DNA from: a virus
Length of the DNA stretch: 64,000 bases
Virus record (IMG/VR): IMGVR_UViG_3300023115_001620
Coordinates: 27,023 to 91,022 of that record
Strand: one strand, 5' to 3'
Shown: positions 1 through 27,073 of the stretch, piece after piece
Position numbering within the stretch: the stretch's first letter is position 1
How the letters are laid out: the number at the start of each line of letters is the position of its first letter
Position numbers and translations under genes: made by a program
Notes under the pieces: model-generated
Told to the model about the DNA's origin: nothing
Seen by the model: only the letters and a program-made list of their open reading frames with translations
The model's database searches: none

Positions 1-697
1 CTGTACTGTCAGCAACAACAAATTTGAGATAGACTGAAGAATTCCGAAGACTAAAATAATCACTAACAACAGCAGGTCGGATAGCGTCCTCCCAAGATTC
101 TCCACTAACGGAGAGCTTAGGCGAACATGAGAAAGTCCATTTAATTCTGCTCGTAGCATTGATATAGTTTCTAAGATCGTCGTGTAAAAATTGTGTGCTA
201 TTTGTTTCAAACGTGACATTTTTTAAGTCCTTCATTTTAGGATGTTCAAACAACTCTACATAAAGTCGTTGCCAAGCAAGTAATGGCTCACCGCCTGTAA
301 GAATTAGATGTATATCTTGCCCGTTGTCTTGTGTCCATTTGCCTTCTGGCAGCAAACTAATCAAATGATCTACAACTTCGTCTACTTCTGCTAGTTTGTT
401 GAAGTCTTTAAATTCTGGATAGATACTTGCATATGTGTCACAGCCTGTATGAATAATGGGCAAGTCTTCAAACTTTTCTGTTGTATTATGCACATCCTTT
501 GCAATTAGTTCTGCAACTTCAGGATTGTGTCTGATTTTATTTTGTGTTTTTACTGCACGACTAGGTTCATCTCTTCCTAGTCCAAAGTTCATACAGCGGA
601 AGTTACAACCAAATGTGCGCAAGAATACACTAGGTACTCCTACAAATTTGCCTTCGCCTTGCACACTATAGAATGCTTCTGAATATCTTAGTTTCAT
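1..697 (-). CDS. queE: 7-carboxy-7-deazaguanine synthase QueE (radical SAM), 3' end outside window
   Basis: Not in ORF track; manual translation from ATG at 697 gives [35 protein letters not shown]...GCDT...[10 protein letters not shown]...VTFETN, all QueE hallmarks; next to folE. Confidence 0.9.
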
Positions 698-804
698 AAT
701 GGCAGCCTTCCTGTATACAATTCAATTCCTAAACCTATCATGCCCATTATAAACACTGCTATAATAAACACTTGTGCCATGCGCACTGCAATATAATCAC
801 CCAT
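694..804 (-). CDS. small single-TM membrane protein (36 aa)
   Basis: Manual translation [36 protein letters not shown]; TAATG overlap with folE stop and ATGA overlap with queE start. Confidence 0.6.
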
Positions 805-1487
805 TAGCAACTAAACTCCTGCTGTAGTTTAATATTGTCAAAGAATTCTTTCTTTGTACCTGCATCATCCTTAAATGCACCTTTTAGTACAGTTGTCTGT
901 GTAAGTGAACTATGTGCCATAATGCCACGATTCTCACAGCAACCATGTGTTGCTTGAATGTATACACCTAAATGTTCTGCACCTGTTGCCTTTGCAATCT
1001 CACGTGCAATATCATTTGCAAGTTCTTCTTGTAGCGTACCACGGCGAGCGCACCACTGTGCAATACGTGTGTATTTAGATAAGCCAATCAATTTGTCTGC
1101 GGCAATAATACCAATGTATGCTACACCGCCTACTGGTTGATGATGGTGACTACACATACTTTTTAGTTCTGAACGAACAACTAGCATACCTTCGTAGCGT
1201 TCGTCTGAGTCATTTGGAAATGCTGTTGCACTTGGAATAGGATCATAACGTCCTGACATGATCTCATTAAAGTACATCTTAGCAAGACGTCTTGCTGTAC
1301 CTTGTGAGTTAGGATCATTGTGTCGATCAATTACTAGTGCATCAAGCACACTTTCAAATGCTACTGTAGCATCATCAATAAGTTGTTCTTTATCGCCCTT
1401 TTGTAGGACTTCTGAAATATTGTCGCCTGCCCAATAGCGAATGTTTGCATCTTGCAAACGGGCTTTAATCTGTTCTGCTTTGCTCAT
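804..1487 (-). CDS. folE: GTP cyclohydrolase I
   Basis: SMCSHH, GLSKYTRI, QEEL, ATHGCCENRG motifs. Confidence 0.95.
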   Translation of the reverse strand: MSKAEQIKARLQDANIRYWAGDNISEVLQKGDKEQLIDDATVAFESVLDALVIDRHNDPNSQGTARRLAKMYFNEIMSGRYDPIPSATAFPNDSDERYEGMLVVRSELKSMCSHHHQPVGGVAYIGIIAADKLIGLSKYTRIAQWCARRGTLQEELANDIAREIAKATGAEHLGVYIQATHGCCENRGIMAHSSLTQTTVLKGAFKDDAGTKKEFFDNIKLQQEFSC

Positions 1488-4542: not shown

Positions 4543-4939
4543 GATTACCTTTGAAATCTTGATCTACCATTTTATAGATAGTTTTAAAATTTTCATATGC
4601 TTTTTCAAGTGCAGGATAATGCATACACATTTTTTTGAGCTTTTCCGGAGAGGGCATATGGTCTTCAAATTCAACTTTATTGAAAGTTATATTTGTCAAA
4701 CCGTCAATAGTGCTATCTAATGATATTGTATCGTTAAGTGTGAATGTGCCATCGTTAATATCTACAACAAATGTATTATCTGCACTAGAAGTATACATTG
4801 AATCTTTGTAAACTAAATTATCAAGGTCTATAGTTTCTACCATCAAGTCAGATAGTGTGATAGAATCTGAACCAGTAAGAGTTACAATGTCAACATCTGT
4901 ATCATTATCTTTTGATTGTGTCATATAGTACTGCTCCAC
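4514..4939 (-). CDS. acidic hypothetical protein ending in an SSB-like tail (EDDEDIPF)
   Basis: ORF track; C-terminus resembles bacterial SSB DDDIPF. Confidence 0.7.
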   Translation of the reverse strand: MEQYYMTQSKDNDTDVDIVTLTGSDSITLSDLMVETIDLDNLVYKDSMYTSSADNTFVVDINDGTFTLNDTISLDSTIDGLTNITFNKVEFEDHMPSPEKLKKMCMHYPALEKAYENFKTIYKMVDQDFKGNHEDDEDIPF

Positions 4940-5948
4940 TGAAGAATTCTTTGTTTAGTTTAGTGCGTTGCTTGTCTAATGCTACAAGAAAATCTTCATA
5001 GTTTTCCATATATTCTCTAATTTGTGAAACTACCTCTCCACGGTGTTTGCGATAGCTTGCAAAGTCTTCAGTCCATACACTAGGATATTTAAATTCAGAC
5101 AGTGCCATTTCACTGTAGCTCAGTCTATCAGGTACCATAGGAATAGCATCTACTAATGCACCTTCATACCAGCTAATACCAAGTGTTTCTTGTAAGTTAG
5201 AAGAGAACACCATCTTAGCTTCGCCTAGCAAGTTGTGATACTCATTCTTAGTAAGCTCACGTTCTTGACAAACTACAAACTCGTATTCAGGAAGTTGTTC
5301 TGCTAGATCACGGAAAATATCAACTTGCTTCTCAGGAGCAATACGATGTGGAAAGAGAATAAGATTACGCTTTTCCATACCTTTGTAACTATCTAAACTG
5401 TTCTTTAGATACTCCATAGGCCAGCCTACACGATGAGTTTTATCATCATCTATATCTAAACTTTCAGCAAATAGATCTATATGAAAGTCAGTTGCATAAA
5501 AATTATCATCATAACATTCATACATAGATTGTTCTGCATGACGTACCCAAGGCTTATCGCCAATTAGCCTACCAAGGAAATCATGAGGATCATAAGAACC
5601 AGCATGCCAAAGACCACCGACTCTAATGTCGACCCCAAGGAGCTCAGCCATGTAGCGCAACTGGATAACAGTTGGGTTCCACGCATCCGTATATAGGAAA
5701 TAATCTCCATCATTCACTTCACCTTTACAAAACATTTCACCAATCTGTTCAAGTTGTTTTGACTTGTACACGTTAGTTCCGCCAAAATTAAGAAATGCCC
5801 CAGGCGTAGTTGCTTGAGGCGTTTCTCCACCGCTAATAACCTTTACATTTTGATTTGTAGCTCGTTGAAGCTGTAATGGAAGATGATCCTTCCATTGCTT
5901 AGTGTAACGTGTATCTACAGCCTCAATGTCTACAATGTAAATAGTCAT
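4905..5948 (-). CDS. GT-B (GT4-like) glycosyltransferase
   Basis: FPHRIAPEKQ and EX7E motif ETLGISWYE followed by IPMVP. Confidence 0.8.
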   Translation of the reverse strand: MTIYIVDIEAVDTRYTKQWKDHLPLQLQRATNQNVKVISGGETPQATTPGAFLNFGGTNVYKSKQLEQIGEMFCKGEVNDGDYFLYTDAWNPTVIQLRYMAELLGVDIRVGGLWHAGSYDPHDFLGRLIGDKPWVRHAEQSMYECYDDNFYATDFHIDLFAESLDIDDDKTHRVGWPMEYLKNSLDSYKGMEKRNLILFPHRIAPEKQVDIFRDLAEQLPEYEFVVCQERELTKNEYHNLLGEAKMVFSSNLQETLGISWYEGALVDAIPMVPDRLSYSEMALSEFKYPSVWTEDFASYRKHRGEVVSQIREYMENYEDFLVALDKQRTKLNKEFFSGAVLYDTIKR

Positions 5949-6178: not shown

Positions 6179-6646
6179 TTATTGTTTAGGATAAAAGATT
6201 GAACAGCCATTTTCATTATCTTCAGCTACGCTGATCTCTACAAAGCGGCCGGGATACTTTGCAGCGATTTCTTGATACAAGTCATCTGCAATCATCTCAC
6301 ATGACTTGTGATTTAACTCTAGTACGCCTTCAACGTCATAGAGTCGTTGCATCCAGCGTTTAAACTGAATGAATTCAATATCGCGATCGTTATGAAATAC
6401 TTCAATACGAACACGAAAGTGAAAGATATGACGATGTGGAATACCAAGGAATGATACGTCATCCCAATCGCCAGTTGCTAATTTAGGGTCAGTGTCTGCA
6501 CCTGGGTACATATGTACACCTTCTTTTGTAAAGGTTACCCAAATGCTTCGTTGAGCTTCGGTTATTGCGTTGTTAATATTATCGTTCATTTGTTCTTCTT
6601 TCAATCTACGACCCATATAGTCCCAATATGATTCACGTTGTTGCAT
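6179..6646 (-). CDS. QueD/PTPS-like T-fold protein
   Basis: GVH...HRHIFHFRVRIEV, LNHKSCEMIA, VAEDNEN resemble QueD Zn-binding His and catalytic Glu; same cluster as folE/queE. Confidence 0.55.
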   Translation of the reverse strand: MQQRESYWDYMGRRLKEEQMNDNINNAITEAQRSIWVTFTKEGVHMYPGADTDPKLATGDWDDVSFLGIPHRHIFHFRVRIEVFHNDRDIEFIQFKRWMQRLYDVEGVLELNHKSCEMIADDLYQEIAAKYPGRFVEISVAEDNENGCSIFYPKQ

Positions 6647-6681: not shown

Positions 6682-7195
6682 GAGCATATTCACTCCAATC
6701 TGTAAACTTTTGATCGTCCATTAGATTGTGCAGTCTGTGACACCATACACCTGGATTGGTTGCACGAAAGTCCTTGTCATCAATCTTTAACATAGTATTG
6801 TAACCAAATTGTTTAATGTAGGGAATAGGAATACGCAGTTGCGGAATAAACAGATCTGTTTCAACCAGTCCAGTTTCTAATAGTGCTTCTGCATGATCGA
6901 GCGGCACATCAAGTGTACAAGGAATACCTTTGTCAAGAAAATACATTATCATATCTTCCCATTCGTCCCATGTGTCTGCATCTTCTGGAAAGTTTGTACC
7001 TGGACTAAATGAATGATTAGCACCAAAGAAAATATGTTCACATTCTTGTGTTGCAAAATGTTCAAACACTGTTTCAATATTTTGAACACCAGTTACAAAT
7101 AGTGTTTTCTTTCCATAAACAGGTGTACGTTCTACTTCAATTCCAGTAAAGAACATAACATCGTCATGTTCGCCTGTGTCATAGTCTCTTTTCAT
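6665..7195 (-). CDS. hypothetical protein in the deazaguanine cluster
   Basis: 176 aa ORF, ATGA-coupled. Confidence 0.75.
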   Translation of the reverse strand: MKRDYDTGEHDDVMFFTGIEVERTPVYGKKTLFVTGVQNIETVFEHFATQECEHIFFGANHSFSPGTNFPEDADTWDEWEDMIMYFLDKGIPCTLDVPLDHAEALLETGLVETDLFIPQLRIPIPYIKQFGYNTMLKIDDKDFRATNPGVWCHRLHNLMDDQKFTDWSEYALDKPL

Positions 7196-7401
7196 TCTAA
7201 TCCTAATTGTACAAGTTTAGAGTTAAGTTTATGAATTTCGTCTTTTAGATAAAGTTTCATAGTTTTCATTCTACGAACTTCTTCTGATATAGTAATATTA
7301 TTATATAATATTTCTATGTCACTGTCAAGTTTTCTGTGTCTTTTTTCTAGTTCAACTATACGGTTACGAATTTTGTCTTCTTCTGAATCATAATTGCTCA
7401 T
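7192..7401 (-). CDS. small helical-hairpin protein (DUF465/YdcH-like)
   Basis: LEKRHRKLDSDI...MKTMKLYLKDEI pattern. Confidence 0.6.
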   Translation of the reverse strand: MSNYDSEEDKIRNRIVELEKRHRKLDSDIEILYNNITISEEVRRMKTMKLYLKDEIHKLNSKLVQLGLE

Positions 7402-9067
7402 CCACTAGTTCCTCCAACTTAGTTTCATCTAAGATGTCTTCTTCTTGTTCAACAACTTCTTCTACTTCAAATAATGCATTAAAAAATGTATTAGCATTTA
7501 CAGTCTTTTTGCCAATTGCACCTCTAGTACCAGGTATAGCCATCCAAAATTTAGAGTATTCATCTATTTTTTGTAAGGCTTCGTCTTTATCTGTAATTGC
7601 AAAAATTTCATTTACAACATCTCTAAACAGAATTCTATCAAACTTTTCGTCTACTAACATTTTAGGAATCACACCGTTGTCGTATTGTCTGTTTGCTTCT
7701 TGTACAGCGTTTACATGACTCCATACGTTATGACCCATTTGTATAGCATAACTAAATGAGTCCCAGCTAGTCTTTCCTTCTTTACCTATCTTATTTAGGT
7801 CTCCAGGAGCATAAGTGCAAACGTCTGATACTTTGAGTTCGGCAGTAATCGGTGAGTCTTCAAAGTTTTTAAATATCCCATCTGATATAACAGTGTCTCT
7901 AAACAAGCGTTGATCTGTAGCATATTTTTTATCGTCAACTGACGGCACCATACGATACGTCCATTTGCTTCTGTCCTCAGTTTCGTTCTGAATGTAGATC
8001 TGTCCATTCGCGGTTGCCAAGAAAGGACTAGCACAGTCAAAAGTAATAGTAAAGTTTTCATTATAGTTTTTCCGCACAGCACGTTGAATGTCAGTAAGCA
8101 AACAAGCCCACTCTAGTTTAGATGTACCTAGAAAGTGCATTATATCATGCACACCTTTTTCAAGCAAACCGTCAAAGTGCAGTGTTACAAGTCTTTTTAG
8201 TACCAAGTGTACATCGCACATGTTCTGACCACCCATTGCCCAACCATTAAAATGGTTGTCTGGATACTTTGCAGGATCACAAAAATCTTTCATCTGTGAA
8301 TACCAGTCATCTGCTTCGTCGTGTGTTTCGCCTTGTAGAACGTTTAAGAACTTACAGTTGCCGTTACGATGCTTCATCCAATATTCGTTATTATACTTAG
8401 AAGCATTAACAGCATCTTGATATGTACTAATACCGGTCTTTTCTCTACCTGCTGGCGAGCGACAAACCCATGCTGGAATATCAAGGATCATACCGTAGTC
8501 CATATATGCATCCATCCAACGGAGAACACCGTCACGCTTTTGCTGTGCCGCATCAAGTCTTGCTTGATATTGTTTAGCATGATTAATTTTAGTTGTCTTA
8601 GGATTACCGTTTTTATCAAGTTTAGGATTGCCATGTTCGTCTAGTTGTTCAACTATTTCAATACCTTTTGCAACAGCTTCTGCCATACGAGCAGCAACTT
8701 CAGGACCATTAGGGTCACGCCATTCGCCTTCCCAAACACCTTTACCAATTTGGAAACCACCTGAGTCGCCAAGTATCCAACTATTTTCTCTATCTCTATT
8801 ACGTACCATATCTTCTTTAGGAACATCTTTAGTTGTATCTAAATCAGCGTGTCCTGCTGAATATAGAGTCCACTGGTACTGGAATTGACCTTCTTGTTTG
8901 TTAAGATAGTTTAAACTCTCTACACCGTGTGTAAAGTTAGATGGAATACGTGACTTATCTACATATTCGTCATAACGCTGTTTGCCTACGTAAGTGGCAT
9001 AGAAGCCACTTAGTGCCGGGAGAAACCTTGCGTAATCATTCTGTGTTGCAGTTAAGTCTTTTTGCAT
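7388..9067 (-). CDS. TGT-fold transglycosylase (DpdA-like guanine-exchange enzyme)
   Basis: TGT motifs in order: DSGGFQ, MILDIP, NVLQG, GWAMGG, HFLG, FDCASP; lacks the CxCxxC Zn site of tRNA TGT; clustered with preQ0 genes. Confidence 0.75.
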   Translation of the reverse strand: MQKDLTATQNDYARFLPALSGFYATYVGKQRYDEYVDKSRIPSNFTHGVESLNYLNKQEGQFQYQWTLYSAGHADLDTTKDVPKEDMVRNRDRENSWILGDSGGFQIGKGVWEGEWRDPNGPEVAARMAEAVAKGIEIVEQLDEHGNPKLDKNGNPKTTKINHAKQYQARLDAAQQKRDGVLRWMDAYMDYGMILDIPAWVCRSPAGREKTGISTYQDAVNASKYNNEYWMKHRNGNCKFLNVLQGETHDEADDWYSQMKDFCDPAKYPDNHFNGWAMGGQNMCDVHLVLKRLVTLHFDGLLEKGVHDIMHFLGTSKLEWACLLTDIQRAVRKNYNENFTITFDCASPFLATANGQIYIQNETEDRSKWTYRMVPSVDDKKYATDQRLFRDTVISDGIFKNFEDSPITAELKVSDVCTYAPGDLNKIGKEGKTSWDSFSYAIQMGHNVWSHVNAVQEANRQYDNGVIPKMLVDEKFDRILFRDVVNEIFAITDKDEALQKIDEYSKFWMAIPGTRGAIGKKTVNANTFFNALFEVEEVVEQEEDILDETKLEELVDEQL

Positions 9068-9789
9068 TACTTACTCTGTGCTGGAAGTATATAATCGTAT
9101 TTTGCCATTCCTGAATCAACTGTAATCATCATAGCGCCTTGGTCCGAAATGCTCATAGTCAAATCGCCATCTAAATTTAAGATGCTTTGTACTTGTGCAA
9201 CAGGCCAACTCCAAGTGTGCTGTAAAGAACCCTCTACATCGTGTTGGAAAACAAACTCGCCTGCGTGTGTGCTTGCATCACCAAAGCTAAAAACAAGATT
9301 ACCATCAACAGTTTTAACATTAAATGTTGGTTCTTCTGAATGTGCAGCACTCATAAGCTTCATACGTGCAATTGCAGCTACACTAGGCTGTAGAGTAACA
9401 TTCCAACTTGCACCTTTAAACTTAACGGTCTTAAGTTTTTCTTCAATAATTGCTTTGTTCATAAAGCGGTAATCGTTCTGGAAGTCACCAGTTGCATTTT
9501 CAAAGTGAATGTGTGTTGGAACTGTTTCGCCATTGCGTTCTGCTTGTACAACTTCAATTTTAGCATTGTCTTTGTACTCAGGGTTTTTCAAATGTAGCGC
9601 AAGTTTGTCTAAGTTTGGCATACCAAAAGTGCCTTCTGCCACTTTATGACCTGAAGTTGCGCTTAGAATTACGCTACGATCATCTGCCATTGAGTCGATT
9701 GTTGTTTCGTCCTCGCCTGTAACTTTAACTAGACTTAGAAAACCAAGTGCATGTGTATGTGCAACAACGTCTTGTAAGATATCTTTCAT
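9067..9789 (-). CDS. probable DNA sliding clamp (gp45/PCNA-like)
   Basis: 240 aa (two-domain clamp size), beta-rich pattern, terminal YDYILPA strand; PolB and clamp loader in the window. Inference from size and context. Confidence 0.55.
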   Translation of the reverse strand: MKDILQDVVAHTHALGFLSLVKVTGEDETTIDSMADDRSVILSATSGHKVAEGTFGMPNLDKLALHLKNPEYKDNAKIEVVQAERNGETVPTHIHFENATGDFQNDYRFMNKAIIEEKLKTVKFKGASWNVTLQPSVAAIARMKLMSAAHSEEPTFNVKTVDGNLVFSFGDASTHAGEFVFQHDVEGSLQHTWSWPVAQVQSILNLDGDLTMSISDQGAMMITVDSGMAKYDYILPAQSK

Positions 9790-10577
9790 TATACTGTTTC
9801 TCCATTGAATAAATCTATTATATTATCATTACCTTCTTTTGTCAAGAAGTTTTGTATTTCGTATTTAGGTTTAAACCCAAGTGCTTTCATTTTCTCCATG
9901 TTTGCACAAGTCCATTCTCTTTCTCCTGGAGTATTTAGGCGAACAGGAAGTTTAGGCGCCAAGTCTTGAACACGCACTGGACGCCCTGTACCAATGTCAA
10001 CAACACCATTGACATGTGGTGCATTTATGAGTATTTCAATTGCATCTAGCATATCTTCTAAATGAATGAAATCTCTATAGTGCTTTGTTGTATATTCTAA
10101 TGTACCGTTACGTAGTTTATTAAAGAACATATTCTTTCTAGGACAATTATCTGAGTACACAGTGTGGAAACGCATTCCTAACATTGTTCCTGCGTTATAT
10201 CTTTCTGCAAGTTCTTCTAAAATATATTTAGAAGCTGCATAAGGATTTAAATCTGGTTCATAAGCACTTGAACTACTTGCATAAAGTATCCTTGTACCTT
10301 CATAATGTTCAAATAGTCTACGGCTTGCTTCAACATTATTCAACCAATATCCTGCAGGATCTTTAATACTTTCACGAACACCGCTTTTGCCAGCAAGGTG
10401 AATAATTAAATCAAATTTTTCATTAAACTCACATGTTAATAAATCTTGAGTATTGTTAAGTTTGTCCCTATCCCAACCATCTTTTAAGTCTATACCTACA
10501 ACACTATAGTTTTTTGTAAGACGTGTAAGCAGATTGCTTCCTATGTATCCTCTATGACCTGTCAGCAAAATTTTCAT
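9789..10577 (-). CDS. NAD-dependent epimerase/dehydratase
   Basis: TGHRGYIG, IHLA, ASSS, YAASK. Confidence 0.9.
   Translation of the reverse strand: MKILLTGHRGYIGSNLLTRLTKNYSVVGIDLKDGWDRDKLNNTQDLLTCEFNEKFDLIIHLAGKSGVRESIKDPAGYWLNNVEASRRLFEHYEGTRILYASSSSAYEPDLNPYAASKYILEELAERYNAGTMLGMRFHTVYSDNCPRKNMFFNKLRNGTLEYTTKHYRDFIHLEDMLDAIEILINAPHVNGVVDIGTGRPVRVQDLAPKLPVRLNTPGEREWTCANMEKMKALGFKPKYEIQNFLTKEGNDNIIDLFNGETV
9817..9845 (-). promoter_or_regulatory. consensus sigma70 promoter for the clamp/TGT-like operon
   Basis: TTGACA-17 nt-TATAAT inside the 3' end of the epimerase; GGAG SD follows. Confidence 0.75.
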
Positions 10578-11259
10578 TAAGTATCCTCCATGTGTCCTTC
10601 CAGTGTTTCACATGATAATTGCAACCTTTTTTATTTGCGTTAGCTAAAGGTTGATCATTACCACCTAACTGCATTGCGTCACCAAAAAATATTAATGTAT
10701 CATTACTGTCAAAATCATTTACTATTTGACTTTTATCAAAGCCCTTTGGCGAAATGTCAATACCTGTTTCTCCACCTACCTTTGCTTCTAAGTATGGAAA
10801 CATAATATTGAAACTGTGAGCAATTTTATATCGTTCAGCCTTTTTTGTATCATAACGTACATACTGTGCACGTTGTTCTTTGTCTGCACCTCTGCCAACA
10901 ACACTAAAATTTACCATTCCTGGGCGATGTTCAAAATGTTGTCCTGTACGCAACGGAAATTCACTTTCAGTTAAACATTGGGCAAGGAATGTGTGAGGTG
11001 TTTCTTCTAATATCCATTCATTTTGATGTACATTTGTGTCTTGCTCCCAAACATCGTTTCCGTTGCAATTATAAACTCTCACAGCAAGATTGTAAATAGA
11101 CAAACCTACTTGTTCAACAGTTTTCATTTTATCAGAACCTGTAACCAAATAACATGAATTATGGCTGGCAAAGTTCTCAAACCATGCAGCAAAGTCTTTA
11201 TCTATTTTTCCTCTGCTAGGAGTCAGTGTTCCGTCTACATCAAAAACAAATTTATTCAT
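10552..11259 (-). CDS. phosphomannomutase-like HAD-IIB phosphotransferase
   Basis: FDVDGTLT, VTGSD, EHRPGMVNFSVVGR, FFGD...GGND. Confidence 0.8.
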   Translation of the reverse strand: MNKFVFDVDGTLTPSRGKIDKDFAAWFENFASHNSCYLVTGSDKMKTVEQVGLSIYNLAVRVYNCNGNDVWEQDTNVHQNEWILEETPHTFLAQCLTESEFPLRTGQHFEHRPGMVNFSVVGRGADKEQRAQYVRYDTKKAERYKIAHSFNIMFPYLEAKVGGETGIDISPKGFDKSQIVNDFDSNDTLIFFGDAMQLGGNDQPLANANKKGCNYHVKHWKDTWRILNENFADRS

Positions 11260-11410
11260 TTACACAAATTGCCTTTTCATCTTGATCAAATGTTGCTTCT
11301 AACACAGCTTGGTTTATTAGACACTGTTTTTGTGAATCATACCTGTTGAATTCTGTGACTTTGTATTCATTATACTCAGGTATAAAACTTAGTACAAATA
11401 GAATCCACAT
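11252..11410 (-). CDS. small hypothetical protein (52 aa)
   Basis: Manual translation MWILFVLSFIPEYNEYKV...KAICVNE; TAATG coupling. Confidence 0.55.
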   Translation of the reverse strand: MWILFVLSFIPEYNEYKVTEFNRYDSQKQCLINQAVLEATFDQDEKAICVNE

Positions 11411-11589
11411 TAGGTGTCTTTCTCTTCTTTTTGTTTTTTGCGTTTAGTATAAAAGCCACCTTTGAATTCAATATCTTCTGTTCTTTTACCACTTACACCT
11501 ACTGTAATTTTTCCACCATTTTTTATATATTCATCTACTAACTTTTGTTCTTCGTCAGTTAATGATCGACTCACAGGATTCATACTCAT
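11410..11589 (-). CDS. small basic hypothetical protein (59 aa)
   Basis: Manual translation MSMNPVSRS...EYIKNGGKITV...KEEKDT; ATGA coupling. Confidence 0.6.
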   Translation of the reverse strand: MSMNPVSRSLTDEEQKLVDEYIKNGGKITVGVSGKRTEDIEFKGGFYTKRKKQKEEKDT

Positions 11590-12002
11590 TTACTTTCTCT
11601 TTCTGCTACTCGCTTACGCAAGTCGCTACTGCTGAAGCGGTGATCTCGTTTGTTAAAGTGTAGCTGGATACCCCGCTTCTTGCAAATATCCTTGCCAGTA
11701 AAATCCTTTTCTCTATACTCTTCACCTAATATTCTAACATCAATATGATACATTGTCAAGATATCTTCTAGGTCTTTTTCAGATGTATATGGAATTATTT
11801 CATCTACGTATGCAACTGCTTTGAGTTGTGTGTAACGTTCTACTACAGTTTGTATAGGAGAATTCTTTTCAGGCCTGTCTACGTTAGGATCTACTTGTAA
11901 TCCGCATATTAAGTAATCACATTGTTCTTTTGCTTCACGCAACATTTGTACGTGTCCTGCGTGAAGTAAGTCAAATGTTGAACAAGTAAATCCTACCTTC
12001 AT
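11586..12002 (-). CDS. glycerol-3-phosphate cytidylyltransferase-like (TagD family)
   Basis: FDLLHAGH (HxGH), VDEIIPY, terminal SSS. Confidence 0.85.
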   Translation of the reverse strand: MKVGFTCSTFDLLHAGHVQMLREAKEQCDYLICGLQVDPNVDRPEKNSPIQTVVERYTQLKAVAYVDEIIPYTSEKDLEDILTMYHIDVRILGEEYREKDFTGKDICKKRGIQLHFNKRDHRFSSSDLRKRVAERESK

Positions 12003-12106: not shown

Positions 12107-12510
12107 TGTGTTAGTCCTTGAACCAAATTCATAGCAACTGCTGTGCCGCTAATACTTGATCCTATCATAATTGCTCTATCGCTCCAGCTCATTCCTACAA
12201 AGATCCATCCTATTGAACTGAGAATGTATGCTATTTGTCCATACATTGTGAATCCTGCACTAATTGAAAATACACCTATCACAGCAAGTACCATACTTGC
12301 CCATTTTACATACCAGTCTACTGTGCCAGTAGGTGTTGTAGGTGTTAGATCTTCAACTTCGTGTTGTAGTTCTGCAAGCTCTTGTTTAAGACGTTTACGT
12401 TCTTTTGACAGTTCTGCTGCAAGTTGAGACGCACGATTTTCTCTAGATGCTTCTTTGTACTCGTCTTTTACCATTTGTTCGTGTTCTGTCACGTTAGTCT
12501 CCAAAATCAA
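12103..12510 (-). CDS. coiled-coil plus 3-TM membrane protein
   Basis: Hydrophobic C-terminal half; real start may be GTG at 12492. Confidence 0.7.
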   Translation of the reverse strand: MILETNVTEHEQMVKDEYKEASRENRASQLAAELSKERKRLKQELAELQHEVEDLTPTTPTGTVDWYVKWASMVLAVIGVFSISAGFTMYGQIAYILSSIGWIFVGMSWSDRAIMIGSSISGTAVAMNLVQGLTQ

Positions 12511-15166
12511 ACAAACTTGAGAAAGTGTTGTGTTGTTTAGTATCTTCTAGTGGATAGTTAAGCACACCAATCAAGTTATCTAGTTTATTATCAATAATAG
12601 TTTCCGCCATAGCCGCATCGTCAAACGGCAGTTCCTTAAACCATTCAGGCAAACGTAGCTCATCTGTTGGATAAGCAACACTAGTATAGCCTAGTGGATT
12701 TGGTTTGAGTTTGCATACAATAACTTTCATACCATCTACAATCTCTTGCGAGTATTTGTCACCGTTCATACGTTTTAGTGTATTCCAGTTGATACTTGCT
12801 CTTACGTGACCAGGCATGTTTGCTTTGCCTTGTTTTTCTTCAAGACGTTGATAGTGTCCAATTTTGTTTGCACGTTTAGGCGAACCTTTTTCAAATCCTG
12901 GACGCTGTTCAAACTCTTTGCGGAACTCTGTAATACGCTGTAGCACATCTTCTTGTGATGCATCTGTAAGCACCATTAGTAGCAGTTCTTTTAGGAACTC
13001 CTGCATAAACACTGGAGTATCTGATCTACGCAAGTCCAAGCCCATTGCTTTTACTTTACCTGGCTTACCATCTGTGTCTGTTCTAAAGCCTTCGTTATCA
13101 ACAACTAATGCTGCATATCGCTTCTTAGTAATGTACAGGCCTGATTGTGCAACAATTTCTCTACCTGCTGCAATAACATCGCTCCTTGTCTTTGGACAGT
13201 GAAATGCTCTCAGCATAAAGTCTGGGAATGTTGTGTTTGCTTGTTCGCACACTTGATCATACAGTGTAATACACTTGTCTATGTTAAAGTCAAGTGCTCC
13301 ACTTTCTACATCGTCTTTGAGAGCAGGCCAAGCACTAAAGTACACAGAGTCTGTATCACCATATATAACACTTTTGCCTGTGTGATCATATTCGCCTGTG
13401 ATAACTTTGTTAACTTCAGCACTCATATGCTTAACAATTTGTCTACCAGTTAGTGTAGTTGACTGTCCTATCCTTTTGTCAAAAAATCTACAACCAGGAT
13501 TAAGAATAGCTCCATAAAGTGAGTTAAGATTAATTTTCTTAACAAGTTGCCGCTTGTCCCAGTACTCAATCTCTGCATCGTTCTTTGCATCTTTAGCTTT
13601 CTTCAGCATCTTCTGCATGTCTTTACGTTCTGCATACCAACGCTTTAGGATACCTGGAATGACACCTTCAAACTCTGTTGTAAAGATTGTACCATTTGCA
13701 CTTAGCATCCAAGGCATTTGACTGTCAAAGATAAGTTGATAAATCTCTGCACCGCTTAGTACATCTGAACGTCCATCTTCCCAGTCAACTGTAAGTGCAA
13801 CATCTTTGCGTTGCTCCATAACTGCATCATATTCTTCAACATTAAAGCGTCCTTCCCAGCTGCCTGCGAATGACTTTTTCTTTAGTGTAGTATCTTCGTG
13901 TACACGAGCATCTGTAATCTCAGGACGTATCTGTCCTACAATAGTTTCTGGAGCCATATTCAATGCACGAATCACTGAAGGATACAGTGAGTTCAAGTCC
14001 ATTGAGCCAATGTATTTGTGCAAGCCCTTTTTAGGAAACGCAACATACGCACCTGCGGCTTGTGTGCTTTCAGTGTCGTCACGCTTTGGACGATTAGGTA
14101 CTCGCAAATCTCTGTTGTGCGCTTCGTTGATAATACCTTGTTCTGTAACAGCAACAGCACCCATAGTTGTTTGCAGTAGAACAGTGTTTTCGTGTGCAAT
14201 TGAATTACTTAGATCAATAAAGCGTAATTTTTTGTCAAGTTTGTCAAGTAGTGCAGTATCTTGAATGTTATATTCAATGAACTTGCGGAAGTCATTATTA
14301 TACAACTGGTCCAATGTGCCTTCATATGGCACCTTGTTTTCACCTACTTCAATCTCACCAATTGCATCCAAGCGATATGAATGACGTTCTTCATATGTGT
14401 ATTTGCGATACAGTTCTAAACTGTCCAAATGCACACGACCTACTAAGTCAAATGTTACTGCTTGTTTCCCATACTTTTCATATTCACGTTTCTTAGGCAA
14501 CTGTCCCCACAAACAAAAACGTCTTGTGTCGTCTTTGCTTAGTACACGACTTGTTCTGTTTACAGTATACGGAATATCATAACCTTCACTGTTCCAACCT
14601 GACAAAATATCTGCATCTTCAATAAGTGTTAAGAACGTGTCAATCATATCACCTTCACGTTCAAACAACATTACGTTATCAATGCCTTCTAGTTCTTGTT
14701 TTGCTTGGTCCATTGTAAGTGTTTTAGGCGGAACAGCAAGACATACCATTGTTTCTAGCCACTGCAAATACACAGATATAGATGTAATTGGCATAAAAGG
14801 ATCTGCTGGATCAGCAAACCCGCGCTCTGGATCAAAGTCTGTCTCAATATCAAAGAACGCAATGTTTAGTTTAGGGGCGTCTTGATTTAGATAGTGTTCA
14901 CTCAAACACTGAAAGATTGGATTGATGTCACTTTCAAATAAGTTTTTGCTTTTGTTAATAGCAACTTCTTTGCGAAAGTCTTTTGTATTTTTACAAACAA
15001 TTCGTGTAAGGGGATCTCCGTACACACTTTTGTACTTGCCCTTAGGATCTTCATAGTAAAAAGTATATTTTGCTTGATATTCTTGATAGTGTCTTTTGCC
15101 GTCACGACGCTCCACGACACGGATAATATCTTGATCACGATCAAACATCGCATCAACGTATGGCAT
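12494..15166 (-). CDS. polB: family B DNA polymerase with 3'-5' exonuclease
   Basis: DIET, GWNSEGYD, YNIQD exo motifs; DLNSLYPS, KINLNSLYG, YGDTDS, KKRY polymerase motifs. Confidence 0.97.
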   Translation of the reverse strand: MPYVDAMFDRDQDIIRVVERRDGKRHYQEYQAKYTFYYEDPKGKYKSVYGDPLTRIVCKNTKDFRKEVAINKSKNLFESDINPIFQCLSEHYLNQDAPKLNIAFFDIETDFDPERGFADPADPFMPITSISVYLQWLETMVCLAVPPKTLTMDQAKQELEGIDNVMLFEREGDMIDTFLTLIEDADILSGWNSEGYDIPYTVNRTSRVLSKDDTRRFCLWGQLPKKREYEKYGKQAVTFDLVGRVHLDSLELYRKYTYEERHSYRLDAIGEIEVGENKVPYEGTLDQLYNNDFRKFIEYNIQDTALLDKLDKKLRFIDLSNSIAHENTVLLQTTMGAVAVTEQGIINEAHNRDLRVPNRPKRDDTESTQAAGAYVAFPKKGLHKYIGSMDLNSLYPSVIRALNMAPETIVGQIRPEITDARVHEDTTLKKKSFAGSWEGRFNVEEYDAVMEQRKDVALTVDWEDGRSDVLSGAEIYQLIFDSQMPWMLSANGTIFTTEFEGVIPGILKRWYAERKDMQKMLKKAKDAKNDAEIEYWDKRQLVKKINLNSLYGAILNPGCRFFDKRIGQSTTLTGRQIVKHMSAEVNKVITGEYDHTGKSVIYGDTDSVYFSAWPALKDDVESGALDFNIDKCITLYDQVCEQANTTFPDFMLRAFHCPKTRSDVIAAGREIVAQSGLYITKKRYAALVVDNEGFRTDTDGKPGKVKAMGLDLRRSDTPVFMQEFLKELLLMVLTDASQEDVLQRITEFRKEFEQRPGFEKGSPKRANKIGHYQRLEEKQGKANMPGHVRASINWNTLKRMNGDKYSQEIVDGMKVIVCKLKPNPLGYTSVAYPTDELRLPEWFKELPFDDAAMAETIIDNKLDNLIGVLNYPLEDTKQHNTFSSLFDFGD

Positions 15167-26248: not shown

Positions 26249-27073
26249 TTATTTGTAAATCTTCTTTTTAAGATCTTCTATTTCTCTTAAAATACTTTCG
26301 TCTTCTATATTTGGTATACTTGCATCAATTTCCACATACAAATTACCTCTTTTGCCTGTATTAATGTTTGGAATACCGTATCCTGGTATGTTGAAAACTT
26401 GTCCTGATTTTGTGCCTTTTGGAATTTTTAATCTAACTTGCTTACCGTCTAATGTATTCATTATTATAACACAACCTAGCAATAAGTCAAATACATTTGT
26501 TACCTTTTTGGTAATTAAATTGTCATTATCTCTTTCCCAGTTATGTTGTTTTTTAACTCTAATTTTTACATGCAAATCGCCTCTTGGATATTGATGATAT
26601 CCGTCGTCTCCTAATCCCTGATATCTAACTGTATCTCCGTTTTTTGCCCCAGGAGGTATACTTACTGTTACTGTTTCTAGTTTACCTGTTCTAGTTTGGT
26701 ATTGAATGATTGCATCTTTTCCTTTTAAAACATCTTGCAAACTTATTTCTGCTTTTACATGTATATCACTATTTCTAGGAGTCTTAACATTTGCAAACCC
26801 CTGGCCAAATATATGATCAAAGGGTGTTCCTGCAAAAGGGTTACCTCCATTTCTAAATTGATTTGCGTTAAATTGGAAGTCTGGACCAGGATTGTCGTAG
26901 GCAGAACGTTTATCCGAGTTACTTAGTATTTCGTATGCTTCTGTAACACGTTTAAATTCTTCTTGGTTGCCTCCTCTGTCAGGATGATGTTGCATTGCCT
27001 TACGTTTGAAGGCTTTTTTTATTTCATCCTGCGAAGCAGTCCTTTGAACACCTAAAATAGAATAATAGTCCAT
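26249..27073 (-). CDS. dnaJ: class B J-domain chaperone (DnaJ/CbpA-like, no Zn finger)
   Basis: MDYYSILG, HPD, G/F linker, GDLHV and GNLYV C-terminal domains. Confidence 0.9.
   Translation of the reverse strand: MDYYSILGVQRTASQDEIKKAFKRKAMQHHPDRGGNQEEFKRVTEAYEILSNSDKRSAYDNPGPDFQFNANQFRNGGNPFAGTPFDHIFGQGFANVKTPRNSDIHVKAEISLQDVLKGKDAIIQYQTRTGKLETVTVSIPPGAKNGDTVRYQGLGDDGYHQYPRGDLHVKIRVKKQHNWERDNDNLITKKVTNVFDLLLGCVIIMNTLDGKQVRLKIPKGTKSGQVFNIPGYGIPNINTGKRGNLYVEIDASIPNIEDESILREIEDLKKKIYK

Follow-up and report, generated by a model that had tools for sequence, protein, structure and literature searches.

Candidate docking of a DpdA-like transglycosylase on the sliding clamp of an uncultured jumbo phage via a polymerase-type C-terminal peptide

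Introduction

In phages T4 and RB69, the C-terminal peptide of the DNA polymerase gp43 binds a hydrophobic pocket on the sliding clamp gp45, and other gp45 clients, such as gp33 and the T4 ligase (via an internal loop), fill the same pocket with an LDFLF-type motif (PMC6212786). A DNA-modifying enzyme of T4, the α-glucosyltransferase, is recovered together with gp45 on purification (Sommer 2004, an observation reproduced in PMC13216743). This work concerns a 64,000-nucleotide stretch ("the window", positions 27,023 to 91,022) of the IMG/VR virus record IMGVR_UViG_3300023115_001620, a 91-kb fragment of an uncultured marine jumbo phage that is estimated to be 23% complete. The window includes a replication module in which the gene for a predicted DpdA-like transglycosylase (7388..9067) follows, and overlaps by one base, the gene for a predicted sliding clamp, and in which the transglycosylase has a C-terminal peptide resembling that of the phage's own DNA polymerase.

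DpdA-type enzymes act on finished double-stranded DNA, in which guanines have to be flipped out and replaced, yet in some phages most or all G residues are modified. Insertion by DpdA has been described as post-replicative, with no link to a clamp, and phages with DpdA3 reach complete replacement (2023 survey, PMC10516641). How enzymes of this type attain such coverage and find the phage DNA is the question addressed by a clamp-docking peptide, which would provide a concrete mechanism by which the enzyme is recruited to newly copied DNA and slides on it. A full-text search for literature linking DpdA to a sliding clamp found none, as the terms co-occur incidentally only. An initial annotation of the window had proposed that the transglycosylase rides the clamp; the analysis described here makes a clamp-docked DpdA-like enzyme, held via a polymerase-type peptide, a reasonably probable reading of the locus.

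Results

Identification of the polymerase, clamp and transglycosylase

Three open reading frames (ORFs) on the minus strand are central to the locus, and encode proteins of 890 (12494..15166), 240 (9067..9789) and 559 (7388..9067) amino acids (aa). The 890-aa product is a family-B DNA polymerase of the RB69/T4 gp43 type (Pfam DNA_pol_B and DNA_pol_B_exo1; phrog_262), the thumb region of which matches RB69 gp43 chains with an E value of 6e-16 and T4 gp43 more weakly. No match to Pfam, NCBIfam or, using phmmer, the PDB was obtained for the 240-aa protein, and its sole PHROG match is phrog_12062, a group of unknown function. Similarly, NCBIfam and phmmer searches against the PDB gave no match for the 559-aa protein, and a profile of 123 of its homologues returned only noise from the PDB sequences. 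Because sequence-only searches failed for both proteins, structure models were needed to identify them.

The 240-aa protein was modelled using AlphaFold2 (AF2) from an alignment of 86 homologues (27–90% identity) found in related viral contigs, giving a two-domain model with a predicted local distance difference test score (pLDDT) of 94.1 and a predicted template modelling score (pTM) of 0.90. Foldseek matched this model to PCNA (E 3.5e-11, TM about 0.7). On comparison with structure representatives by VIA-align, PCNA was found at Z 18.1 (215–222 residues aligned), T4 gp45 (6drt) at Z 16.5 and β clamps at about Z 15, and the best 38 matches were all sliding clamps or viral processivity factors. 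Hence the assignment of 9067..9789 as a clamp of the PCNA/gp45 type, which had been made from the sequence, is borne out by the predicted fold and is almost certainly correct. The size and two-domain layout of the model fit a trimer, and the C-terminal segment Y-x-Y-I-L-P of the protein is conserved. Like gp45, the predicted clamp has a two-domain subunit of about 230–240 aa and is accompanied by a gp43-homologous polymerase; it has no detectable sequence similarity to gp45.

The AF2 model of the 559-aa protein, for which the 123 homologues served as input, has a pLDDT of 92.2 and a pTM of 0.90. Residues 1 to about 512 (7532..9067, minus strand) form a folded catalytic domain that was matched by Foldseek to bacterial tRNA-guanine transglycosylase (TGT) with an E value of 8.6e-8 and probability 1.0. 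The five best VIA-align neighbours are ArcTGT (Z 19.2), QTRT2 (17.7), TGT (16.9), DpdA 7ui4 (15.4) and Cap10 (14.9), whereas no generic TIM barrel exceeds 11.7. The 123 sequences have eight invariant columns in common, corresponding to D101, S102 and G104 (in LGDSGGFQ), D196, P198, H311, G314 and D344. Alignment of the family profile with that of E. coli TGT using hhalign gave a partial match (probability 87%, E 3.9e-6), in which D196 (..LDIP..) pairs with D143 (..FDEC..) and D344 (..TFDCASP..) with D264 (..MFDCVMP..). In E. coli TGT, D143 recognises the base and D264 is the nucleophile. The protein therefore has a putative catalytically competent active site, and is very likely to have a TGT-superfamily fold with intact catalytic residues. 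The description "TGT/DpdA-like" in the initial annotation agrees with the predicted fold and with the catalytic residues.

Membership of the TGT superfamily is at the level of the fold, and the protein lies outside the Pfam TGT family as defined. Profile comparison with DpdA proteins covered DpdA3; the similarity is marginal and partial, with a probability of 83% over 82 columns for DpdA3 of phiST and of 29% for that of immuto. The enzyme is thus classed within the TGT superfamily as DpdA-like and is not placed in any described DpdA subfamily, DpdA3 being the only one compared by profile. As tblastn against phages, even at E ≤ 10, found the enzyme in only 13 cultured-phage records, all from jumbo phages, the family is not among the DpdA groups of ordinary cultured phages. 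More than 7700 metagenomic proteins belong to it at E ≤ 0.001. It is a large, abundant and undescribed DpdA-like family that is missed by curated models.

A peptide common to the polymerase and transglycosylase tails

The polymerase includes the peptide NTFSSLFDF (residues 880–888; 12503..12529, minus strand), placed three residues from its end, in a position that matches the gp45-binding tail of RB69 and T4 gp43 (PMC6212786). As a gp43 homologue with a peptide of similar character at its end, the polymerase very probably contacts the clamp through this tail.

The C-terminal tail of the transglycosylase (residues 513–559; 7391..7531, minus strand) is modelled with low confidence (pLDDT 41–66) and is predicted to be disordered apart from short helices at residues 529–532 and 548–558. 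The first of these helices lies on the candidate clamp-binding peptide NTFFNALFE (residues 526–534; 7466..7492, minus strand; core F529-x-x-L532-F533-E534), which is separated from the enzyme fold by a disordered linker of about 15 residues. Both peptides are located where the initial annotation had placed them, but its alignment of the two on "NTF" is one residue out of register, because the two peptides differ in spacing by one residue; close homologues of the enzyme show the core to be F-x-x-L-F-[D/E]. In these homologues (70–97% identical), the segment ..GKKTVNA-[S/T]-x-F-x-x-L-F-[D/E].. is kept, while the sequence that follows varies in length and content. The core common to both proteins is [S/T]-x-F-x-x-L-F-[D/E], and F529-N-A-L-F533-E of the enzyme pairs with F882-S-S-L-F886-D of the polymerase.

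In the 91-kb record, the motif is found in the C-terminal tail of the polymerase and the enzyme only; a third protein with the motif, which would represent another clamp client, was sought in the record and none was found. By analogy with the gp43 tail, the motif in the transglycosylase probably binds the phage clamp. The simplest reading is that the enzyme is a candidate second client of this clamp, since it presents the peptide of the polymerase on a flexible linker and its gene is translationally coupled to that of the clamp.

Gene organisation

The stop codon of the clamp gene (TAA) and the start codon of the transglycosylase gene (ATG) have base 9067 in common, forming a TAATG junction (9065..9069, minus strand). 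The same type of overlap is found at 9789, where the clamp gene follows an epimerase gene. A promoter-like site of the sigma-70 type, TTGACA-17 nt-TATAAT (9817..9845, minus strand), matches the consensus at 12/12 positions; reading from 9845 to 9817, it lies within the 3' end of the epimerase gene and 28 nt 5' of the clamp ATG. Taken as a whole, promoter-like sites are no more numerous in the region than in shuffled sequence, and what stands out is the perfect score alone. The gene coordinates, the translational coupling and the consensus promoter sequence given by the initial annotation were all found on checking the ORFs and the sequence. Another perfect TTGACA-17 nt-TATAAT sequence is present at 7300..7328 (minus strand), within a small DUF465 gene (7192..7401) just 3' of the transglycosylase gene.

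The polymerase gene is 2.7 kb upstream of the clamp gene, and genes for a cytidylyltransferase, a phosphomannomutase and an NAD-epimerase lie between the two (9789..12002, minus strand). The region is the replication module of an uncultured jumbo phage.

Conservation of the motif in related loci

Using two members of the enzyme family as queries, 161 viral loci were gathered and the three genes were read in each; one query, P0292, gave a single locus. The order polymerase, clamp, transglycosylase is kept in essentially all loci that have the three genes on the contig. The motif was present in both polymerase and enzyme in 140 of the 143 loci where both genes are complete. Conservation of the motif, on which the initial annotation had made its proposal depend, extends to the enzyme tail and the polymerase end across about 160 loci, and to the distant cultured relatives Pseudomonas phage PA5oct and Vibrio phage 2.275.O. 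In the enzyme, it persists among homologues with identities between 97% and about 29%, in a tail that is otherwise unalignable.

The form of the motif differs between lineages, and the polymerase and enzyme of the same phage tend to have matched variants. In the clade that includes the window, the polymerase ends in ..N-T-F-x-S-L-F-[D/E]-F.., whereas Vibrio 2.275.O has NNTDLFDW-stop in the polymerase and NNNDLFGW-stop in the enzyme, and PA5oct has HFDSLFGW-stop and SFNSLFDV, respectively. Further pairs, again polymerase first, are GFVDDLFG-stop and SVNDLFD, SFDMLFG-stop and SHGMLFED, TFESLFA-stop and HNMLFAA, NSFFEF-stop and SKFFEE, and VNSMFSF-stop and RHNLFDF-stop.

The lineage-specific variants bear on the possibility that the common peptide binds the β clamp (DnaN) of the host, and recruits the polymerase and transglycosylase there, which would speak against docking on the phage clamp. 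The β-clamp-binding motif of bacteria is Q-L-[S/D]-L-F (Q-L-x-L-F), which the x-x-L-F core with its polar or acidic flanks resembles, and the superposition of the phage clamp model on β-clamp domains (about Z 15) indicates that the pockets are related in type. However, the β-clamp pocket is highly conserved among bacteria, and the motif varies by phage lineage along with the phage's own proteins. In addition, the phage has its own clamp gene directly upstream of, and coupled to, the enzyme gene, the order of these genes and the polymerase gene is kept in about 160 loci, and the polymerase is of the RB69/T4 type, the tail of which binds the phage clamp (PMC6212786). Docking on the host clamp is considered very improbable.

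For an assessment across the wider family, 83 full-length enzyme sequences representing clusters at 50% identity were used. F..[LMF]F was found in the last 60 residues of 21 of the 83 representatives, as compared with 2.1 ± 1.4 in shuffled tails (maximum 7 in 500 shuffles), an enrichment of about 10-fold, and in none of the body segments of equal length. The dipeptide [LM]F occurs in 55/83 tails (26.7 ± 4.1 when shuffled), and the motif falls within the last 8 residues in 31/83. Many members of the family end immediately after the motif. In the enzymes of loci L019, L028, L060 and L077, the motif has degenerated at its usual position and a new one is present at the extreme C-terminus, and several distant members (P0262, P0274, P0313, P0344, P0370 and P0385) have two x-x-L-F copies in one tail, one internal and the other at the extreme C-terminus. 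Such two-copy tails could in principle contact two subunits of one clamp. The motif is terminal in 169 of the 4263 crude ORFs taken from the 161 loci, and these are 130 polymerases, 24 members of the enzyme family and 15 others, the last being mostly spurious hydrophobic ORFs.

A chance likeness arising from composition, with a functionless motif, would be favoured by the shortness of the motif and by the occurrence of [LM]F dipeptides in about a third of shuffled tails. Against this, the motif is kept to about 29% identity, shows turnover, duplication and co-variation with the polymerase, is enriched 10-fold in tails, and is near-exclusive to two families amongst the 4263 ORFs. These conservation data exclude chance for practical purposes, and its probability is negligible.

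Beyond the motif, the tail of the window's enzyme has another conserved element, namely an acidic amphipathic helix of the ..KLEELVDEQL type ([D/E]-x-K-L-E-x-L-E; residues 548–558; 7394..7426, minus strand). It is kept in the clade of the window, in PA5oct (..DEKLTELEQGL..) and in the P0246 clade, and is weakly enriched among the distant representatives (9/83, compared with 3.4 ± 1.8). This helix leaves room for a tail that docks on another replisome partner, such as a clamp loader, single-stranded DNA-binding protein (SSB), helicase or the polymerase, or that is regulatory or autoinhibitory. Acidic and hydrophobic tails serve various replisome contacts, for example the tips of SSB, which favours such a role. 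Yet the core motif is that of the extreme C-terminus of an RB69-type polymerase, where it is an established clamp contact, the enzyme gene is joined to the clamp gene and to no other replisome gene, and members that end right after the F..LF motif lack the acidic helix and keep the motif. A partner other than the clamp, or a regulatory function, is considered unlikely.

7-Deazaguanine genes and cultured relatives

The window also includes genes of 7-deazaguanine synthesis. GTP cyclohydrolase I (FolE), responsible for the first step, is encoded at 804..1487 (minus strand; Pfam PF01227, E 1.1e-37; phrog_2197). A QueE-like radical-SAM enzyme of the 7-carboxy-7-deazaguanine (CDG) synthase type is encoded at 2..697 (minus strand; phrog_2076, E 1e-35), in a gene that runs off the window edge, and shares 33% identity with the protein annotated as QueE in PA5oct. 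Models for QueC and canonical QueD, and the Pfam PTPS/QueD model, had no match in the 91-kb record, with its estimated completeness of 23%. Two genes 3' of the transglycosylase gene is that of a 155-aa protein (6179..6646, minus strand; phrog_17812, function unknown) with the segment ..PHRHIFHFRV.., which may be a divergent T-fold enzyme that takes the place of QueD or acts on CDG.

The nearest cultured relatives are jumbo phages. Both the clamp and the enzyme were found in the Pseudomonas PA5oct group, Sinorhizobium phage Phosso and Vibrio phage 2.275.O, while Agrobacterium phage Atu_ph07 and Salicola phage SCTP-2 have the clamp only. The order in PA5oct and Vibrio 2.275.O is polymerase, clamp, (small ORFs) and enzyme, and then QueE or QueF/QueC/FolE; in PA5oct the clamp is EST35_0314 and the enzyme EST35_0316. 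Several restriction enzymes are reported to fail on PA5oct DNA, in a pattern indicative of modified G, and QueE and PTPS genes were noted in this phage (2025 preprint, PMC12191111). No other transglycosylase is annotated in the stretch examined around the enzyme locus of PA5oct.

Taken together, the fold and catalytic residues, the FolE/QueE context and the modified G indicated for PA5oct suggest that the enzyme most likely acts as a DpdA-like DNA transglycosylase, replacing guanine in phage DNA by a 7-deazaguanine derivative. Modification of DNA with 7-deazaguanine is accordingly rated as likely. The protein might instead be a transglycosylase of tRNA, or a DNA glycosylase-like enzyme that has a different substrate, in which case the clamp link, if real, would serve another reaction. 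The family is very divergent and matches no Pfam TGT or DpdA model; the protein is twice the length of DpdA3, to which its similarity is marginal (83% and 29%), tRNA enzymes rank above DpdA among its structural neighbours, and QueC and canonical QueD were not detected in the fragment. However, the catalytic Asp pair is conserved, and in the relatives PA5oct and Vibrio 2.275.O the enzyme gene is always accompanied by FolE, QueE, QueF or QueC genes. The modified G of PA5oct, together with the annotation of no other transglycosylase in the stretch examined, also speaks against another substrate, and a peptide held in common with a DNA polymerase argues for action on DNA. Such an alternative activity is considered quite unlikely.

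Discussion

If the transglycosylase docks on the phage clamp, a trimeric ring would be expected to offer three pockets, and the polymerase and transglycosylase could occupy the same or successive clamps. Alternatively, clamps left on the lagging strand may recruit the enzyme. In either case, the enzyme would accumulate on phage DNA that has just been replicated and would slide along it, and base exchange would thereby be replication-coupled and efficient. That tethering also spares host DNA is speculation, and any benefit for the completeness or selectivity of modification is something we infer.

Several findings weigh against this reading. Pfam TGT (PF01702) did not match the enzyme either by hmmscan or in a six-frame search at E ≤ 10, there was no PHROG match, and the assignment of the enzyme comes from the predicted structure and the partial profile match (87%). 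DNA rather than tRNA as the substrate, and the identity of the inserted base, are deduced from context. No clamp loader turned up in this fragment, in which no search was aimed at clamp loaders. There is no [LMIF]F in the tails of 22/83 distant representatives, mostly the shortest and most distant. The co-variation of the polymerase and enzyme motifs was assessed in a permutation test on 93 distinct motif pairs scored at six positions that do not define the motif, where own pairs gave 1.59 identities as compared with 1.32 ± 0.067 for permuted pairs and the observed value was reached by 1/5000 permutations; this effect is modest, the statistic ignores phylogeny and a few of the automatic picks are wrong (such as RFDRLFFR, which is inside the fold), and hence it is supportive only. 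Finally, the share of modification by T4 α-glucosyltransferase was found to be set mainly by expression level and not by clamp binding (2026 study, PMC13216743), and for this reason tethering may matter less than it seems.

The candidate peptide resembles those of the described gp45 clients (gp43, gp33, gp55 and T4 DNA ligase) in being L/F-rich, with acidic flanks and a flexible segment, and in being of one type common to the polymerase and other enzymes of the same phage. It differs in that its bearer belongs to the TGT superfamily and is a base-exchange enzyme, a type absent from the described gp45 clients, and in that an acidic helix follows the motif in the clade of the window. The proposed arrangement is also like that of T4 α-glucosyltransferase, with a phage DNA-modifying enzyme on the phage clamp and modification proposed alongside replication. 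However, the T4 enzyme glucosylates 5-hydroxymethylcytosine already in DNA, whereas a whole base would be exchanged here, and the gene arrangement is not shared.

A parallel exists in eukaryotes, where the interaction of DNMT1 with PCNA (via a PIP box) couples maintenance methylation to replication. There too, a DNA-modifying enzyme is brought to new DNA by a short clamp-binding peptide; the likeness is one of concept only, as the enzyme, the domain of life and the motif are unrelated, and it serves as an analogy only.

With DpdA proteins (bDpdA 7ui4 and DpdA1–DpdA4; PMC10516641), the enzyme has in common a TGT-type TIM barrel (Z 15.4), catalytic aspartates and the company of FolE and QueE, and modified G is indicated in the DNA of its relative PA5oct. 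It differs from DpdA3 in its length (559 aa as compared with about 260 aa) and its marginal profile similarity, and from DpdA in general in having a candidate clamp-client tail and being in an operon with the clamp. What is new here is thus the class of client, an enzyme of an undescribed DpdA-like family, whereas the recruitment device is a known one.

A stronger form of the proposal is that the enzyme is a true replisome subunit, with one or two peptide copies on the clamp and the acidic helix on another fork protein, performing processive exchange behind the polymerase, and that this is a general design rule for DpdA enzymes of phages, archaea and bacteria. This form is conceivable and must be regarded as doubtful. 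If true, it would explain how a "post-replicative" base exchange could reach near-complete modification of a genome. Clamp docking of the DpdA-like transglycosylase, if true, would extend the short list of sliding-clamp clients to enzymes that exchange bases. The family itself is useful for the annotation of jumbo phages and for considering restriction resistance and sensitivity to modification-dependent nucleases, and the idea is open to bench work as PA5oct is cultured and carries the same arrangement.

Other motif-bearing proteins and neighbouring genes

A search of Vibrio 2.275.O for proteins ending in ...LF[G/D/E]W-stop recovered the polymerase, the enzyme and one 74-aa protein, NVP2275O_204 (MG592671.1, 118713-118937; L170:2214-2438). 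A fourth match was discarded, since it is on the wrong strand and inside a helicase gene. NVP2275O_204 is a cysteine-containing hypothetical protein that ends in ..SSLFEW-stop, the ending of the polymerase and enzyme of that phage, and its gene adjoins those for ribonucleotide reductase and glutaredoxin. Similar in size to T4 gp33, it might act as a small factor that binds the clamp. In the same phage, the gene following that of the enzyme has a product that starts with MFNELFDF; it is unrelated to the glycosyltransferase-like gene of the window, and no conclusion was drawn from it.

Two homologous ORFs near the enzyme gene in other loci (L014:9371-9952 and L049:11302-11913; 193 and 203 aa, 33% identical) have a D...E-V-K pattern reminiscent of PD-(D/E)XK nucleases. 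They end in a clamp-type peptide (..STFQDLFAYGN-stop and ..NNFGDLFK-stop, respectively) and possibly represent a further clamp client, which is absent from the record of the window.

Downstream of the transglycosylase gene, a 347-aa protein (4905..5948, minus strand) is encoded that has 45% identity to the product of the PA5oct gene following the enzyme gene of that phage. Together with the cytidylyltransferase, phosphomannomutase and NAD-epimerase genes, it suggests a sugar-nucleotide or glycosylation branch joined to the deazaguanine pathway.

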